Assembly (NCBI GenBank): GCA_038534095.1
Contig: JBCAXK010000027.1
Span: 1 to 21,857, forward strand
Length of the DNA stretch: 21,857 nucleotides
Source of the DNA: Chlamydiota bacterium
Lineage (GTDB): Bacteria; Chlamydiota; Chlamydiia; Chlamydiales; SM23-39
Direction: 5' to 3'
Position numbers: made by a program
Shown: positions 1 through 6,000 of the stretch, piece by piece
Layout of the letters: every line of letters begins with the position of its first letter
How positions within the stretch are numbered: position 1 is the first letter of the stretch

Positions 1-3000
1 AAAACACCCCAAAAACTTCTAAGCTTCGCTCAAAAAAACCATAAATAACTAATTTACAAAGACAAAAAGCTCCCTTCAGACAAAAACACAGTTTTGCGAA
101 AAAATTTCTTCAATCGCTCGACCCTCCTCGAGGAGAACAAAAAGCCTGAAACCCACAAGCAAGGCCATGAACCGACACACCGGCGTTAAAAGGAGCCTCG
201 TCATATACCATAGCCACAGTTTTGGATTTTCATCGAAATAATCGGGCAGAGACGGCTTACACCACAAAAAATCTTCATTGTAAATCTCTCTAAGCTATTT
301 GTTTTCAATGATTAAAAACCTCCAAAACAAAAAACATAAGACATGCCGGTTGAGAAATTCCTAGACGGAACTAGAGTAGAAGATCTGGACTACCTACTAA
401 AGACAAGATCTATACGGATAATTTATTAAAGATTTTATAAAAATATAATTTTTTTGAAAAATTTTATATAGAAAATAAACCATGATATTTATTATAATAA
501 GATAAATTTAATATATTTTTAATTAAAATAATAAAAGGTGTGATTATGATAACTTTCCCTGCAGACCCAAGAATGCATTATCCTGATTCAAGATCGGATG
601 TTAACAGTGGACCCAATAATGGAGAAGAAGCAAAAAACGAGCAATGGAATAACGGTAGAGATGCAAGAATAGCATCTGCAATAGAAAATATAAGCAACCT
701 GAATACTCAGATTGCTAGCCTCAAAGAAAGACGATGCTCTAATTTTAAGCATACGTTCCTTTCTACAGGAATAGCTTGTGGCGCAGTCAGTCTAGCGTGT
801 AGCTCATTAGACTACCAAGGATTGGATCGAGTGATCATCAACCCTTTACTAGTTGCAATCGCGTTTACATCTGTTGCTTATACGTTTTTCCTTACGTACA
901 ATACAAATAACGATATCGACTCAGCATATGGGAATATAATACGTCACGAAAGAGAAATTATACGCGAATATGAGAATACTATTACTCGTTTAGGGCAGAA
1001 CAGAAGACACTAGTATTGGATCTACGCTACCCTTGCATGCAAGTTTCCTACATCTGACCCCCAGTTCTGTCAGATTCGTGTTGTCCAACTTTTAGCTTGC
1101 ACAAGTGATTTGGACTCTTCAAAAGTCTGCATGGCGGTTTTTCCATAACAATACTTTTCGCTATGGAAGGCCGCCCTCATGATACTTTTCGATCCATTGA
1201 TCCAGCTCCTCTTGTAGTTCTTTTATGCTGAAGGAACCTTTCTTTCTAAAAGCTATAGAGCAGAATGCATTTTGCATTGTTTGATGGAATCTTTCACAAA
1301 TTCTATTTGTTTGAAGAGACTTAGCTTTCGTGCTTGTGTGTTCTATATCCTCACAACGTTCAATGAAGATACGTCACAAATTTTCAAAGATCATTCTCTA
1401 AAAAATAGGTCTTTAGTTAGGAAGTGAGCTTGAAACATTCTCTGGGAAGTACAAGGAAAAAAAGTGCAAAACGAGCCCAACACCGCTTCTCTGCAAACGG
1501 AAATCACCTTGAAGAAGGTTTTTACAAGGAAATGTAAATGCGATCGCCCTAATCTTGATCAGAGGGTGTATTTACACAAAATCTTTGAAACCCGTATAGT
1601 TGATGCATGATTCAAGAAAAAGCTTTTTCTCAACTGACTTCGATCGATCAATTTGCGAAGGAAGATTTTTTCCATTTTTTTGCTAAAGCACTTGAGGTGA
1701 AAAAAGAAAAAACCTCTTCTGGTCTTGAAGGGAAAATCTTAGCCAGCTGTTTTTTTGAGCCTTCTACAAGAACAAGGCTCTCTTTTGAATCGGCTATGCT
1801 CCGGTTAGGTGGCTCTGTGATCGGTTTTTCCGATGAAAAGGTGACCTCAGGGAAAAAGGGAGAATCATTACAAGATACCATCAAAACCGTTAGCTTGTAC
1901 GCCGATATCATTGTGCTTCGCCACCCACTTGATGGGGCAAGTACCTTAGCAGCGGCTTCCACCACTACTCCTGTGATCAATGCAGGGGATGGAACAGGCG
2001 AGCATCCTACACAAACTCTGACCGATCTATTTACCCTTTATGAAACGCGCTCCTCTTTAGAAGATCTACATATAGGGATCGTCGGAGATCTTTTTTACGG
2101 GAGGACCTGCCACTCGCTTGCGATCGCTCTTAGTCATTTCCAGGCAAGGCTCTATTTTGTTGCCCCATCTGGGTTGCAGATGCCCACTTCGATTTGCGAT
2201 TTATTGAAAAAGCGAGGCATTAAATTTTCCTTTCATGAGACCATGGAAGAGGTAGCTCCTAAATGGGACGTCCTCTACATGACGAGACTGCAAAAAGAGC
2301 GGGGAGCGCAGCTCAATGAGCACCCCTACTTCCTTTTGAAGAAGTCTGATTTAACCCATATGAAACCGAGCGTCTCTATTTTGCATCCCTTTCCTAGAGC
2401 AGGTGAGCTGGATTTAGCCCTAGATGCTTCCAGGCAGGCTCTCTACTTTCAGCAGATGGACAACGGTCTTGTTGTAAGAAAAACCCTTCTTCTTTCTATG
2501 TTAGAGGATCGATCATGAATACCCTATCGATTTTGGCACTAAAAAGCGGAACGATTATTGACCATATTCCTGAACACACTGCCCTCAATATTCTTCAGTG
2601 TTTGCGCAAGTTTCCTAAAAGCGGTTCCTTAACCATAGGAATATCCCTCTTAAGTGAGAAGCTTGGAAGGAAAGACCTGATCAAGATGCATGATCGGAAG
2701 CTGTCTCCAGAAGAAATGACCTACGTTGCCCTTTTTGCTCCTAATGCAACAATCAATGTGATTGAAGACCACTGCCTCATCACAAAAAGCGCCCCCACTT
2801 TTCCAGAAGAGGTGATTGGCATTTTTTCTTGCTTAAATCCCCGTTGTATCACTCACGTAGAGCATGTACCCTCCCATTTTTTTGTCGATGCTAACCGCGC
2901 CCAGATGCACCTACAATGCCGGTACTGCCAATCTATGTTTCCAAGAGATGCCCTGCAAGAGTACGCGCTATGATCGACCTAGTCCACCTGAAAGAGAATT

Positions 3001-6000
3001 ACACCGAGGCCCCCCTCCCCCTTCCTTCAGAAGAATCGATCCTCATCGATGCTTCGGGAGCGATCTTGCTCCCTGCTGGCACCGATCCTCATGTCCATTT
3101 TCGAACGCCTGGGCAGACGTATAAAGAGGACTGGCGCTCGGGAGCTCTTGCCAGTTTCTCCGGAGGGATCACAAGAGTGTTTGATATGCCCAATAATCTT
3201 CCTCCGATTGTTACTCAGCAGGCTCTTGCAGAAAAGCAGAAGGAAATTCGGTCGACCTTGGGCGATCTCCCTCTAAAATTTGGCCTCTACTTTGGCGCGT
3301 CAAAAGATCATCTCGATGAAATTCATAAAGTTCATAGCGACATCATTGGCATCAAAGTCTTCATGGGCTCTTCGACCGGCACCCTTCTACTCGATGATGA
3401 CGCCGCTTTAGAAAAAGTCTTTCAGATTGCAAGTGAGTATGACCTGCTCGTTGCTGTCCACGCCGAAGATGAAGCAAGAATCGAAGAGCGAAAAAAACGG
3501 TACCAAACACTTTCTCCCCATAGTCATTCACTTGTCCGCGACCCGGTCGCTGCAGAAATTGCAGTCATCAAAGCCTGCGATTTGGCCATCAAATATCAAG
3601 TGCGCCTCTACCTTTTACACATTAGCACACAAAAAGAGCTCCGCGCGATCGAAGAGGCAAAAAAAATGAGCGATCAGGTATTTGCCGAGGCTTGTCCTCA
3701 CCACCTTTTTTTCAATGATGAGGCCTACAATCTTCTGGGGCAAAAAATCCTCGTGAATCCTCCTATACGCTCAGAAATAGACCGTCAGTACTTAATCCAC
3801 TCTCTCAAAACAGGCTTGATTGATACGGTGGGATCGGATCACGCGCCCCATCTTTTAGGAGAAAAAGAGGGGCAAAGGCCCCCTTGCGGCGTCCCTGGAA
3901 CAGAAAGTATTTTTCCGATTCTTTGGCACTTGCACGAACAAGAAGGTCTTTCTATAGAAAGGATTGTCTCCCTTACCTCGAAAGCGCAAGAGAGAATTTT
4001 TCGTCTTCCCAAAACCTCCGATTATCTCCTTCTACATACAGAAAATACCCTCCCCTTTCGCTCTCCATCCAAATGCGGCTGGTCCCCTTATGAAGGGCGC
4101 ATTTTTTCAGCGGCGCCCCTTATCCTGATTTTACAAGATAGGATCATGCCCTTGTCTCCAGAAGGCGCTTCACGAAGAAAAGATCCCTCCTATGAAGACG
4201 CCTAAAGTATACATTCTCCTTTTACACTGGAACGGGTACGACGACACTCTCCGCTGCCTTCTCTCTCTAAAAAATCTACGTTATCCAAGTTATGAGGTGC
4301 TTGTGATTGATAACGGCTCTTCTGATGACTCTCTTTCCAAATTACAACGGATTTTCCCAGATTACCGCTACATTTCTTTAGGAAAAAATCTTGGCTACGC
4401 CGGAGGGAATAATCGGGGCATAGATTACGCTCTTAAAGAAAACGCTGATTACCTCTTTTTACTCAACAATGATACGACAGTTGAGAAAGACACTCTTTGC
4501 CGTTTGATCGAAGGGGCTAAAAGACATCCCAATGGTAGAGCATTTGGCCCAAAAGTCCTCCAAATGTTTGCGCCAAACACTCTAGATTACTTAGGAGGCG
4601 TTTGGGATGAAACGACCTGCAATTATGTGCCTTTTGGGTATAAGGAGCCTCAAAGCTTTTTTCAAAAAGACGTATCACTCGACTACATTTCTGGATGCTC
4701 CCTTTTGCTCGACGCTTCGATTTTTCCTACGATCGACAAATTGGATGAGCGCTTTTTCCTTTTATGGGAAGAAGCAGACCTATGCGCCCGGATCAAAAAG
4801 CAAGGGCATGAGCTTTGGGCTATCCCAGAAAGTGTGATTTACCACAAAGGCTCTTCCTCTTTTTCTGGGAAGGCGCACCTAGAATATTACTGGCATAGAA
4901 ACCGCCTTCTTTGGATGGAAAAACATGTTCCCCGAAAAAATCGTCCCAAAGCGATCAAGCGCTTTCTTAGAAAAGAGCTCATAAAACCGTTTCGTCACTA
5001 CCTGATCAAAAGGCTTCTATGGGCTATATGCCCCCTTTATGCTCCCTCAAAACGGACCGAAAAAAAACGAGCGCAGTTAAGCCGTCTCTACGCCGCTTGT
5101 CTTGGGATGACCCACTACTATTGTCGCAGATTCTCTAAGCGCCCATAAATTCTGCGCGCAAGGCAAAATGCCTACTAGCTGCTCATCTGATTTTGCAGTA
5201 AACAAGAACAGATCACTCCAGCCCTCAGTTGTTTCGCTTTTTACCATGTCCATGCCAAAAATTGATGAGAACGATTTGCTTGGAGTTTAGAACAATCTAT
5301 GTTCTTTTTCTCCTTAAGGCCGTTTGTCTTTTGCCTAGCAAACTCTTCTAACTAAACCCTCAGTGTTCATCGCTCGATATACACATCTAACGCAGAGAGA
5401 TAGCCAGCGCGAAGGGAAATGTTTTTCTTTGGAAAGCCTTTTTTATTTGTAGTATAGTTACGAAAAATTTTTACCTTTAGACCTTTTCCACATCTTATCT
5501 TAAAGGAGCAAACTATGAGCGCAGTAAAGGAACCACCCCAAGGCATTCGGACCTTGCAAACACAACTTTACAAAGGCATGGGTAATGCATCGAAAGTACT
5601 TGGGCAGTTTAACAAAAGTTAAGCAAAAATCGTTGCCGTGACAAAAGAATGCAAAGAATGGATAGAGCTATTCGAGACAAACCTATCTTCTATTTCAGAG
5701 AAAGCGTTTCAGATAAACAATTTGGAAGCGCTTTCCAAACTGCGTATGGATTCTCCGGAAAAGAGTAAAATCTTGCTGTTGAGAGCATGGAAGTTTCCTA
5801 TAAAGCAAGCAGATCCAGTGATGCAAGCTCTTATGGAGCTGTCTGTTTTGGAAGGTATCATCTTAGTAGCCCAACGCAATTTTAAACACTATCCTCTATT
5901 GAACGAGCTTGATCCGTTGTTACAAGAGGATATAAACGATACTGTATTAGATAGTTTGCCTAAATTCACCATTTCCGATCAGGCAACGCAAGAAAACAAA

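Follow-up and report, generated by a model that had tools for sequence, protein, structure and literature searches.

As far as two published accounts describe it, chlamydiae have either the whole pathway of pyrimidine biosynthesis or none of it (PMC6490308, PMC4333871). In Rhabdochlamydia helvetica, a full-pathway pyrimidine operon has been reported which is similar to the operons of Waddlia and Criblamydia (PMC6490308). The latter two apparently make pyrimidines from glutamine, and Estrella, Chlamydia, and Protochlamydia are described as unable to make UMP (PMC4333871). Our literature search found no description of half a pyrimidine pathway in chlamydiae. The genome analysed here, G000, comes from an uncultured chlamydia-like bacterium and is a draft assembly in 87 contigs with a completeness of 96.63%. 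For carAB and pyrB-pyrI-pyrC, it has the same genes in the same order as the operon of Waddlia chondrophila, Criblamydia sequanensis, and R. helvetica. Unlike the complete chlamydial operon, it lacks pyrD, pyrE, and pyrF, and only the front half is kept.

The retained front half comprises exactly the three reactions, ending in dihydroorotate, of the eukaryotic CAD protein, in which CPSase II, ATCase, and DHOase lie on one polypeptide and whose product passes to a separate mitochondrial DHODH (PMC8442968, PMC8508918). CAD is a fusion, whereas G000 encodes separate bacterial-type subunits together with a PyrI regulatory chain. A DHOase homologue encoded beside pyrB is also a feature of the Pseudomonas-type ATCase, where this partner is reported to be inactive (PMC7053772). 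That enzyme has no PyrI, which G000 does encode, and no metal ligand is missing from the PyrC of G000. Intermediates of the pathway are known to leave cells. Escherichia coli excretes orotate and other intermediates, with 19-fold more orotate reported upon pyrE deletion (PMC10087573), and dihydroorotate is secreted by hypoxic cancer cells (PMC6331631). By analogy, a natural block after PyrC should likewise spill its intermediate. However, those cells have the whole pathway and are in a mutant or stress state, whereas the block in G000 is a fixed deletion. Insect endosymbionts split pathways with their hosts, as in the amino-acid and purine metabolism of aphids and Buchnera. As in the reading of G000 proposed below, a reduced bacterium keeps some steps, the partner supplies the rest, and intermediates cross membranes. 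The endosymbiont associations are old mutualisms in which the host genes are known, whereas G000 carries a T3SS and NTT carriers, as an energy parasite typically does; moreover, its split falls after dihydroorotate, unlike in the endosymbiont cases.

The pyr locus lies on the plus strand of the window, that is, the whole 21,857-nt contig that was analysed. The first gene, pyrB (1607..2518), encodes an intact ATCase catalytic chain of 303 aa and overlaps by 4 nt with pyrI (2515..2973), which encodes an intact regulatory chain of 152 aa. The type I dihydroorotase-like pyrC (2970..4205; 411 aa) starts from an ATG overlapping the pyrI stop, and the three genes are intact and translationally coupled. 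Just 5′ of the pyrB ATG, a sigma-70-like promoter candidate on the plus strand (TTTACA-18-TATAGT, 1571..1600) matches at 10 of 12 positions; such matches are no more numerous in the region than in shuffled sequence, and it is regarded as a candidate only. Directly 5′ of pyrB lies a dispersed repeat (1353..1550, no strand assigned), of which about 12 partial copies occur on other G000 contigs; the congener G078 has at least 12. This repeat is a likely cause of contig breaks around the locus. On the other side, pyrC is followed by a GT2 glycosyltransferase gene (4192..5148, plus strand; PF00535), the usual right-hand neighbour of pyrF, which is 36-40% identical to the gene found 3′ of pyrF in relatives. 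T3SS genes identified by Pfam matches come next (7898..12182, plus strand), namely, sctJ (7898-8794), a 279-aa ORF, sctL, sctR, sctS, and sctT, which served as synteny anchor and as rate controls. The window also contains sufSDCB on the minus strand. Intact carA and carB are located on another contig (C23:4810-9080), encoding CarA of 361 aa and CarB of 1062 aa.

The genome-wide survey's note had claimed that the first three steps are intact, and full-length ORFs, motifs, and several of the family scores bear this out. CarB and CarA score 1378.4 and 412.1 bits against equivalog cut-offs of 1027 and 307.35, respectively. PyrB reaches 319.1 bits with TIGR00670, above the equivalog cut-off of 236.95, and matches E. 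coli ATCase chains (E 1e-85) and the ATCase of human CAD (E 7e-76). Its motifs STRTR, KKGE, RHP, HPTQ, YGRTxHS, and MTRLQKER align with the E. coli chains, and all carbamoyl-phosphate and aspartate binding motifs align also with 13 family sequences. We take the binding residues, in E. coli numbering, to be K84, R105, R167, and R229/Q231, beside STRTR and HPTQ. The sole motif deviation is HPLPR to HPFPR, in a motif that is variable in relatives too. PyrI passes the cut-offs of PF01948 (78.8 bits) and PF02748 (54.7 bits) and keeps the four zinc cysteines (CxxxxC ... CxxC), GT(V/I)IDHI, and KDLIK. It falls under the NCBIfam equivalog cut-off of TIGR00240 (133.2 vs 148.55 bits) and has the lowest PF01948 score among 32 in the family, in a genome that is long-branched in all proteins. 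For PyrC, the top NCBIfam models are all dihydroorotases, none reached above its own cut-off (best model NF005751, 300 bits vs 529; TIGR00857, 239.6 vs 279.05). Alignment with 16 relatives recovers the motifs DPHVHFR, GIKVFMGSSTG, VHAEDE, LLHIST, PHHLF, VNPPIR, and GSDHAPH, and in this alignment all metal-ligand motifs are present. The ligands (HxH, carboxylated Lys, His, His, and Asp) are presumably carried by DPHVHFR, GIKVF, VHAEDE, LLHIST, and GSDHAPH.

The order pyrB-pyrI-pyrC-[D-E-F]-GT2-sctJ is found in at least 10 family genomes, and the ancestral cluster was probably carA-carB-hepT-pyrB-pyrI-pyrC-pyrD-pyrE-pyrF-GT2-sctJ. At the junction site, relatives have about 2.4 kb with pyrD, pyrE, and pyrF. 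In G000, this DNA is replaced by a junction (4146..4205, plus strand) which gives PyrC a new tail of about 18 aa and places its stop 14 nt inside the GT2 gene, whose start codon is the native one. In relatives, PyrC stops 3-5 aa past the ...KGxVY strand, whereas in G000 it continues as PLSPEGASRRKDPSYEDA. The last beta-strand, to which this foreign tail is attached, is also unusually altered (GWPRYTILKG to AAPLILILQD). A single clean deletion which took pyrD, pyrE, and pyrF from the ancestral cluster is the best explanation of this structure. Their absence from the ancestral site and from the whole genome, together with that of CTP synthase, had already been noticed, and the scans agree. Whole-genome six-frame scans gave 0 matches for PyrD (PF01180), PyrF (PF00215), and CTP synthase (PF06418), and the only PF00156 match in the search for PyrE was PRPP synthetase (Prs); tblastn queries taken from 11 relatives (their PyrD, PyrE, and PyrF ORFs) returned only noise at E<=1. 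With PyrD, PyrE, and PyrF taken together as the mark of a complete de novo UMP pathway, none was found in G000. Among other consumers of carbamoyl phosphate, the six-frame scan for ornithine carbamoyltransferase (PF02729) matched pyrB only and that for NodU-type carbamoyltransferase (PF02543) matched nothing, and this lack of another sink in the scans speaks for a working front half.

Constraint on the kept genes was assessed by a divergence ratio, i.e., the distance from G000 to references divided by the distance among references (9 to 15 genomes by gene). The ratio was 1.61 for PyrB, 1.96 for PyrI, and 1.99 for PyrC, as compared to 1.70-2.62 for seven neighbouring control proteins. Changes at reference-invariant columns numbered 9/96, 6/32, and 21/125, respectively, with controls ranging from 5/54 to 35/105. 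The kept genes thus show no relaxed constraint, their divergence not exceeding that of the neighbouring T3SS genes, although such rate tests are blind to a neutral period which is short relative to the long branch of G000. No sign of decay (stops, frameshifts, lost catalytic residues, or faster divergence) was seen in the five kept ORFs, which are all full length and total 6.9 kb. If nonsense changes make up about 4% of substitutions and indels occur at about 10% of the substitution rate, simple arithmetic predicts approximately 960 disruptions in 6.9 kb of neutral ORFs for each unit of neutral divergence. All five would therefore be intact only below roughly 0.3% neutral divergence. Since so much coding sequence is unlikely to stay intact for long without selection, a working front half is favoured, and it is somewhat more likely than not that the kept genes are maintained by selection.

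A comparable state is present in G080, which is 96% complete; G000 and G080 belong to neighbouring lineages. On a 271-kb contig of G080, carA-carB-hepT-pyrB-pyrI directly adjoins GT2-sctJ, a deletion boundary different from that of G000. PyrC, PyrD, and PyrF were not found in this genome, with no PF01180 match above cut-off and no PF00215 match. G001, from its apparent sister genus, has the full pathway and operon. The distances of G080 and G001 to the reference clade are 0.597 vs 0.571 for PyrB and 0.871 vs 0.767 for PyrI, so that these proteins evolve in G080 about as slowly as in the full-pathway G001. The sct gene order is the same in 10 full-pathway genomes, G080, and G078. As the survey had stated for the congener, G078 has no carAB or pyrBIC, and it has no GT2 gene either; both nearest relatives, G078 (same genus) and G020, have completely lost carAB and pyrBIC. 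That clade can thus do without the front half. CTP synthase is absent from G000, G078, and G020, which fits a progressive erosion of pyrimidine autonomy. The family counts could be reproduced: among the 102 other genomes, 31 have PyrI and 41 have PyrF, the latter including 28 of the 31 with PyrI. Within a phylum sample of 401 genomes, the truncated state was robust in 2 of 91 PyrI-bearing genomes. Four further candidates with PyrI and without PyrF were rejected as contig-end artefacts, and the state is accordingly rare.

A possible route can be outlined from this gene content. CarAB would supply carbamoyl phosphate, which the PyrB/PyrI holoenzyme, its nucleotide-sensing regulatory chain being retained, would join to aspartate, and ring closure by PyrC would yield dihydroorotate. 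As no dihydroorotate dehydrogenase, OPRTase, OMP decarboxylase, or other carbamoyl phosphate consumer was found, dihydroorotate would have no onward route in the cell and would have to be released; G000 probably makes it and cannot itself use it. After its predicted export, the most likely fate would be oxidation and ribosylation by DHODH and UMPS of a eukaryotic host, with UTP and CTP returning to the bacterium via NTT carriers. The surroundings of the genes yielded no exporter candidate, and neighbouring ORFs have no Pfam match. The NTT transporters previously pointed out are indeed there, with at least four TLC/NTT loci, and scans for salvage found no CTP synthase and no UPRTase above cut-off (PF14681, six-frame), a combination which argues for completion by the host. 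That the front half still works, ends in dihydroorotate, and is finished most plausibly by the host is put forward tentatively. The changed last strand and foreign tail of PyrC count against it, as does the low Pfam score of PyrI.

The same genes might instead be caught in mid-decay after a very recent deletion of pyrD-E-F, the five that remain being useless and their damage not yet visible. The complete loss in G078 and G020, the three-genome clade without CTP synthase, the many losses of the pathway in the family (PyrF in 41/103 genomes), and the C-terminus of PyrC altered by the deletion are all in keeping with decay, and the rate tests would miss neutral evolution that had set in only lately on so long a branch. 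However, five ORFs intact with their catalytic residues leave room for only that small neutral divergence calculated above, and G080 resembles G000 in its truncation, with a boundary of its own and with PyrB and PyrI conserved to the same degree. That two lineages among the 91 PyrI-bearing genomes would both have been caught within such a brief span is improbable. This alternative, which the survey had offered as its own counter-reading, therefore loses weight and is judged unlikely. The later steps could also be present and unseen, either encoded in the 3-4% of the genome missing from the assembly or carried out by unrelated enzymes. G000 is a draft in many contigs, the four rejected candidates elsewhere proved to be assembly artefacts, and in G012 pyrI lies on one contig and pyrD/pyrF on others, so that separation from pyrBIC may occur. 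Against this, both G000 and G080 show a closed ancestral site within a single contig, neither genome has the PF01180 or PF00215 matches expected, and the tblastn searches of G000 gave noise. We know of no non-homologous DHODH, OPRTase, or OMP decarboxylase, and overlooked later steps are very improbable.

Selection on the front half could equally reflect another use, to which the constraint evidence applies as well. Surplus nitrogen from glutamine and aspartate might, for example, be combined with CO2 and excreted as carbamoyl-aspartate or dihydroorotate, or the products may serve the bacterium otherwise. In hypoxic cancer cells, dihydroorotate secretion has been described as a way to dispose of nitrogen (PMC6331631), and it would matter little for a waste product that G080 ends one step earlier. 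Redeployment of carAB is seen in the family: G090 has an arginine cluster in which CarB is fused to OTCase, and G024 a NodU-type carbamoyltransferase cluster. However, the retention of PyrI in G000 and G080 suggests that flux is still adjusted to the pools of pyrimidine nucleotides, carbamoyl-aspartate belongs to no other known pathway, and such nitrogen disposal is ATP-costly for an energy parasite. Another use is thus rather unlikely.

The survey had read the locus as a pathway split between parasite and host. Of this proposal, the clean loss, the intact front half, and the NTT carriers stand. Several results speak against a general strategy: G080 has no pyrC, G078 and G020 have lost everything, and only 2 of 91 genomes are robustly truncated. 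Lacking pyrC, G080 would hand over carbamoyl-aspartate where G000 would hand over dihydroorotate. For G000 itself, the gene content hints at a pathway shared with the host. It is conceivable, though doubtful, that the truncation is an adaptation which may have arisen twice, in G000 and in G080. Carbamoyl-aspartate or dihydroorotate would then be released to the host cytosol under control of the bacterium's own ATCase, would enter past the feedback-controlled CAD, and would enlarge the UTP and CTP pools that the bacterium harvests via NTT.

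The studied genome (G000; 1.62 Mb in 87 contigs, 96.6% complete), of which contig C27 is entirely covered by the window, contains T3SS genes and several TLC/NTT nucleotide carriers as judged by profile matches and is therefore that of a chlamydia-like intracellular bacterium. In the window, pyrB (1607-2518), pyrI (2515-2973), pyrC (2970-4205), and a GT2 glycosyltransferase gene (4192-5148) follow one another on the plus strand with overlaps of 4, 4, and 14 nt. PyrB scores over its NCBIfam equivalog cut-off; PyrI exceeds the cut-offs of both Pfam domains but not that of TIGR00240; and the best matches of PyrC are all dihydroorotase models, with scores under their cut-offs. 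The carA and carB genes, both scoring far over their cut-offs, are located on contig C23 and are flanked by ferrochelatase and GT9 heptosyltransferase genes. Downstream of GT2, 2.7 kb without family matches precede sctJ, a 279-aa ORF, sctL, sctR, sctS, and sctT, and sufS, sufD, sufC, and sufB come next on the opposite strand.

Other elements of the window deserve a brief description. A dispersed repeat of about 200 bp, perhaps a MITE or an IS remnant, lies immediately 5′ of pyrB (1353-1550). About 12 partial copies are found elsewhere on the contigs of G000, three of them close to contig ends, and the congener G078 has at least 12. The stretch from GT2 to sctJ (5149-7897) contains ORFs at 5638-6543 (plus), 6933-7280 (plus), and 7269-7685 (minus) with no Pfam or NCBIfam match; since GT2 and sctJ are separated by about 50 nt in G080 and about 1 kb in genome G084, it is a lineage-specific insertion. 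Two ORFs located 3′ of the suf genes, of 647 aa (17352-19295, plus) and 221 aa (19477-20142, minus), have no Pfam match.

The absence of the later steps from G000 was judged by six-frame profile scans over the whole genome (96.6% complete). PyrD (PF01180), PyrF (PF00215), and CTP synthase (PF06418) gave no matches even at E ≤ 1, the sole match of PF00156 was PRPP synthetase, and nothing exceeded the cut-off for UPRTase (PF14681). PF02729 matches pyrB alone, and therefore G000 has no ornithine carbamoyltransferase; a NodU-type carbamoyltransferase (PF02543) was not found in the same scans. When PyrD, PyrE, and PyrF ORFs from 11 relatives were compared with G000 by tblastn (E ≤ 1), only noise was recovered, including the best match, a PyrF-like segment at C28:19818-20012 (E 0.008) which sits within a large unrelated coiled-coil/membrane ORF. 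The PyrD proteins of the family score weakly against PF01180 (47-75 bits), which fits the eukaryote-like pyrD of Rhabdochlamydia helvetica, whose pyrD, pyrE, and pyrF are described in PMC6490308 as nearest to eukaryotic homologues. CTP synthase was found neither in G000 nor in G078 and the next closest relative, G020, whereas G080, G001, and G002 have it; the pattern suggests a loss common to the subclade that leaves it dependent on imported CTP. A PRPP synthetase gene is kept (L014, contig C36, 13754-14683), though the scans with PF00156 and PF14681 found no phosphoribosyltransferase in G000 that would use PRPP. One NTT/TLC carrier gene is apparently divided between two contig ends, its C-terminal 350 positions lying at C6:55881-56927 and its N-terminal 76 at C34:6-227; one TAG falls within the match on C6.

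The ancestral arrangement is preserved in 10 genomes of the family, where the order is pyrB-pyrI-pyrC-pyrD-pyrE-pyrF-GT2-sctJ-(279 aa)-sctL-R-S-T and the pyrD, pyrE, and pyrF ORFs measure 339-388, 195-214, and 248-273 aa, respectively. In G000, PyrC can be aligned to its relatives through their last strand and then continues with about 18 foreign residues to a stop 14 nt within GT2, the native start codon of which is kept. Therefore, the deletion extends from the final codons of pyrC to a point just 5′ of GT2. The genome-wide survey's note had described a pathway cut after pyrC, with carAB and pyrBIC present and pyrDEF missing; synteny with the 10 genomes confirms this for the ancestral site, the scans and tblastn confirm it for the genome, and the observation now extends to a second shortened genome, G080. 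The latter carries carA-carB-hepT-pyrB-pyrI-GT2-sctJ on a single contig, and G078, with about 71% DNA identity to G000, has the order hemH-hepT-(127 aa)-sctJ. Given these orders, contigs C23 (hemH-carA-carB-hepT) and C27 (pyrB-pyrI-pyrC-GT2-...-sctJ) probably adjoin in G000, and lineage-specific ORFs and the dispersed repeat would lie between them. The pyr operon is a rearrangement hotspot. Several full-pathway relatives carry insertions of 3-6 kb inside it, between pyrI and pyrC or between pyrB and pyrI (L127 in G003, L126 in G021, L130 in G086, and L044 in G029), and that of G029 includes a 1151-aa ORF.

Within the family, PyrF is missing from 3 of the 31 other PyrI-bearing genomes. Two of these were not counted: G079 is 79% complete and its 3.2-kb contig ends within pyrD, and G029, where pyrB-pyrI and an insertion are followed by a pyrC cut off at the contig end and neither CarB nor PyrF was found, is too broken an assembly. 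The third, G080 (96% complete), has the locus (carA, carB, hepT, pyrB, pyrI, 73 nt, GT2, sctJ) on a 271-kb contig; PyrC, PyrD, and PyrF were not found anywhere in this genome. In a sample of 401 Chlamydiota genomes of at least 85% completeness, PyrI occurs in 91 of 401, PyrF in 120 of 400, and PyrI without PyrF in 7. G316, G390, and G412, with pyrD and pyrE followed by a contig end, and G360, with a contig end after pyrI, are artefacts, G029 is doubtful for the reason given above, and G000 and G080 are the sole robust cases of PyrI without PyrF in the sample.

Two other carbamoyltransferase loci were set aside as unrelated to pyrimidines. A supposed CarB-PyrB fusion without later pyr genes in G090 belongs to a carA/argG/argH/argC/argJ cluster. 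The protein (L169, contig C2, 9219-13199, minus), 1326 aa in all, joins CarB to a complete OTCase/ATCase-type carbamoyltransferase. Its gene has carA on one side and argG-argH on the other, argC and argJ being close by, and the product appears to be a channelled CPSase-ornithine carbamoyltransferase that serves arginine synthesis in this chlamydia. In G024, carAB stand beside a NodU-type carbamoyltransferase and sugar-modifying genes: the cluster (L171, contig C1, 5791-15363) includes the NodU/CmcH-type carbamoyltransferase, carA, a short carB (949 aa), a GFO/IDH/MocA oxidoreductase, a DegT aminotransferase, and an Ldh_2-family dehydrogenase, and probably represents a carbamoylated amino sugar pathway in a genome devoid of pyr genes. 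Many family genomes without PyrI, PyrF, or CarB have only one strong OTCace_N match, located in an ORF of about 335-350 aa that is probably an ornithine carbamoyltransferase unaccompanied by carAB.

The kept genes of G000 appear to be in good order. PyrB matches E. coli ATCase at E 1e-85 and keeps STRTR, KKGE, RHP, HPTQ, YGRTxHS, and MTRLQKER; PyrI keeps the four zinc cysteines and the GT(V/I)IDHI and KDLIK motifs; PyrC keeps all metal-ligand motifs. Divergence was expressed as the mean Kimura distance from G000 to full-pathway genomes over the mean distance among these genomes (reference sets of 9-15 genomes, differing by gene), the neighbouring GT2 and T3SS proteins (n = 7) serving as internal controls. 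The ratio is 1.61 for PyrB, 1.96 for PyrI, and 1.99 for PyrC, as compared to 1.70-2.62 for the controls, and changes at reference-invariant columns number 9/96, 6/32, and 21/125, respectively, as compared to 5/54 to 35/105. No signs of decay were thus found in the motifs, divergence ratios, or invariant columns of the three genes. The weak points are two: PyrC is altered in its final strand and tail, and PyrI has low family scores, the latter in line with the long branch of G000 in all proteins. G080 is better conserved at invariant columns (PyrB 4/96, PyrI 2/32), and its distances to the reference clade are about equal to those of the full-pathway G001 (PyrB 0.597 versus 0.571; PyrI 0.871 versus 0.767). 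A metagenome scan with the PyrC of G000 gave a best identity of 43%, and the sole congener, G078, lacks the genes. Nor were any RNA data sets listed for positions 1607-5148.

The two genomes may record one deletion or two. In the RpoC tree, which includes 30 family genomes and 3 outgroups, the topology is ((G002,G080),(G020,(G000,G078))), with SH-aLRT values of 98, 100, and 99; the five-genome group has 88. The whole pathway is present in G001 and G002 and absent from G020 and G078, and together with the tree this distribution makes the truncations look independent. Two events are likely, not proven: a single old deletion followed by long retention would require G080 to group with the G000 clade, which the AU test does not reject (p 0.286), although the tree places it with the full-pathway G002 (SH-aLRT 98). 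A concatenated T3SS protein tree of 12 genomes fits both readings alike, and SufB, being too conserved to resolve the family, was dropped as a marker.

A serious rival is recent decay, in which the locus is simply an operon whose loss is under way. If about 4% of substitutions are nonsense and indels occur at about one tenth of the substitution rate, both values being assumed, 6.9 kb of unconstrained ORFs would acquire about 960 disruptive changes for each unit of neutral divergence, and at these rates the five genes could all remain intact only if neutral divergence were less than about 0.3%. At 71% DNA identity to the congener, the branches are saturated at synonymous sites; therefore, a neutral state would have to be confined to the last small fraction of a branch, and twice over, which favours continued selection on the front half. 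It is thus fairly probable that carAB and pyrBIC are still under selection, the purpose of which is not indicated by these data.

As for that purpose, the earlier proposal that dihydroorotate is handed to the host and nucleotides are taken back is a reasonable hypothesis. The search for other enzymes that consume carbamoyl phosphate found none, and carbamoyl-aspartate is not known to have another use, so that the product of the front half would have to exit the cell; the host would then complete pyrimidine synthesis from the exported precursor, and the bacterium would re-import nucleotides through its NTTs. The nucleotide-sensing PyrI is kept in both G000 and G080, suggesting that flux is still linked to pyrimidine nucleotide pools, and this tips the reading towards host completion and re-import. 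Blocked pathways are known to spill intermediates of this kind (PMC10087573; PMC6331631). Against host completion count the lack of the front half in G078 and G020, the erosion-like, clade-wide loss of CTP synthase, the rarity of the truncated state, and the ending of G080 one step before G000. The whole chain, from front half through export and host completion to re-import, is put forward tentatively, as the favoured reading but one slightly less likely than not.

A full pyrimidine operon, similar to those of Waddlia and Criblamydia, has been described in R. helvetica (PMC6490308), and chlamydiae able and unable to make UMP have been contrasted (PMC4333871). In the sections of both papers available, own UMP synthesis and nucleotide import are treated as either/or. 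No account of chlamydiae with half a pyrimidine pathway was found in the literature, the supplementary figures of PMC6490308 lying outside the search. The finding falls among partial pathways and cases of host-symbiont complementarity. If the locus is in decay, it offers a rare snapshot of ongoing operon loss. A conserved half pathway would instead add a third state, that of an energy parasite spending ATP on a precursor that only the host can finish. If this is true, bacterial growth would depend on host DHODH, a druggable enzyme, and the genome would offer a natural experiment on the persistence of partial pathways under genome reduction; nucleotide parasitism could then mean feeding the host besides stealing from it.
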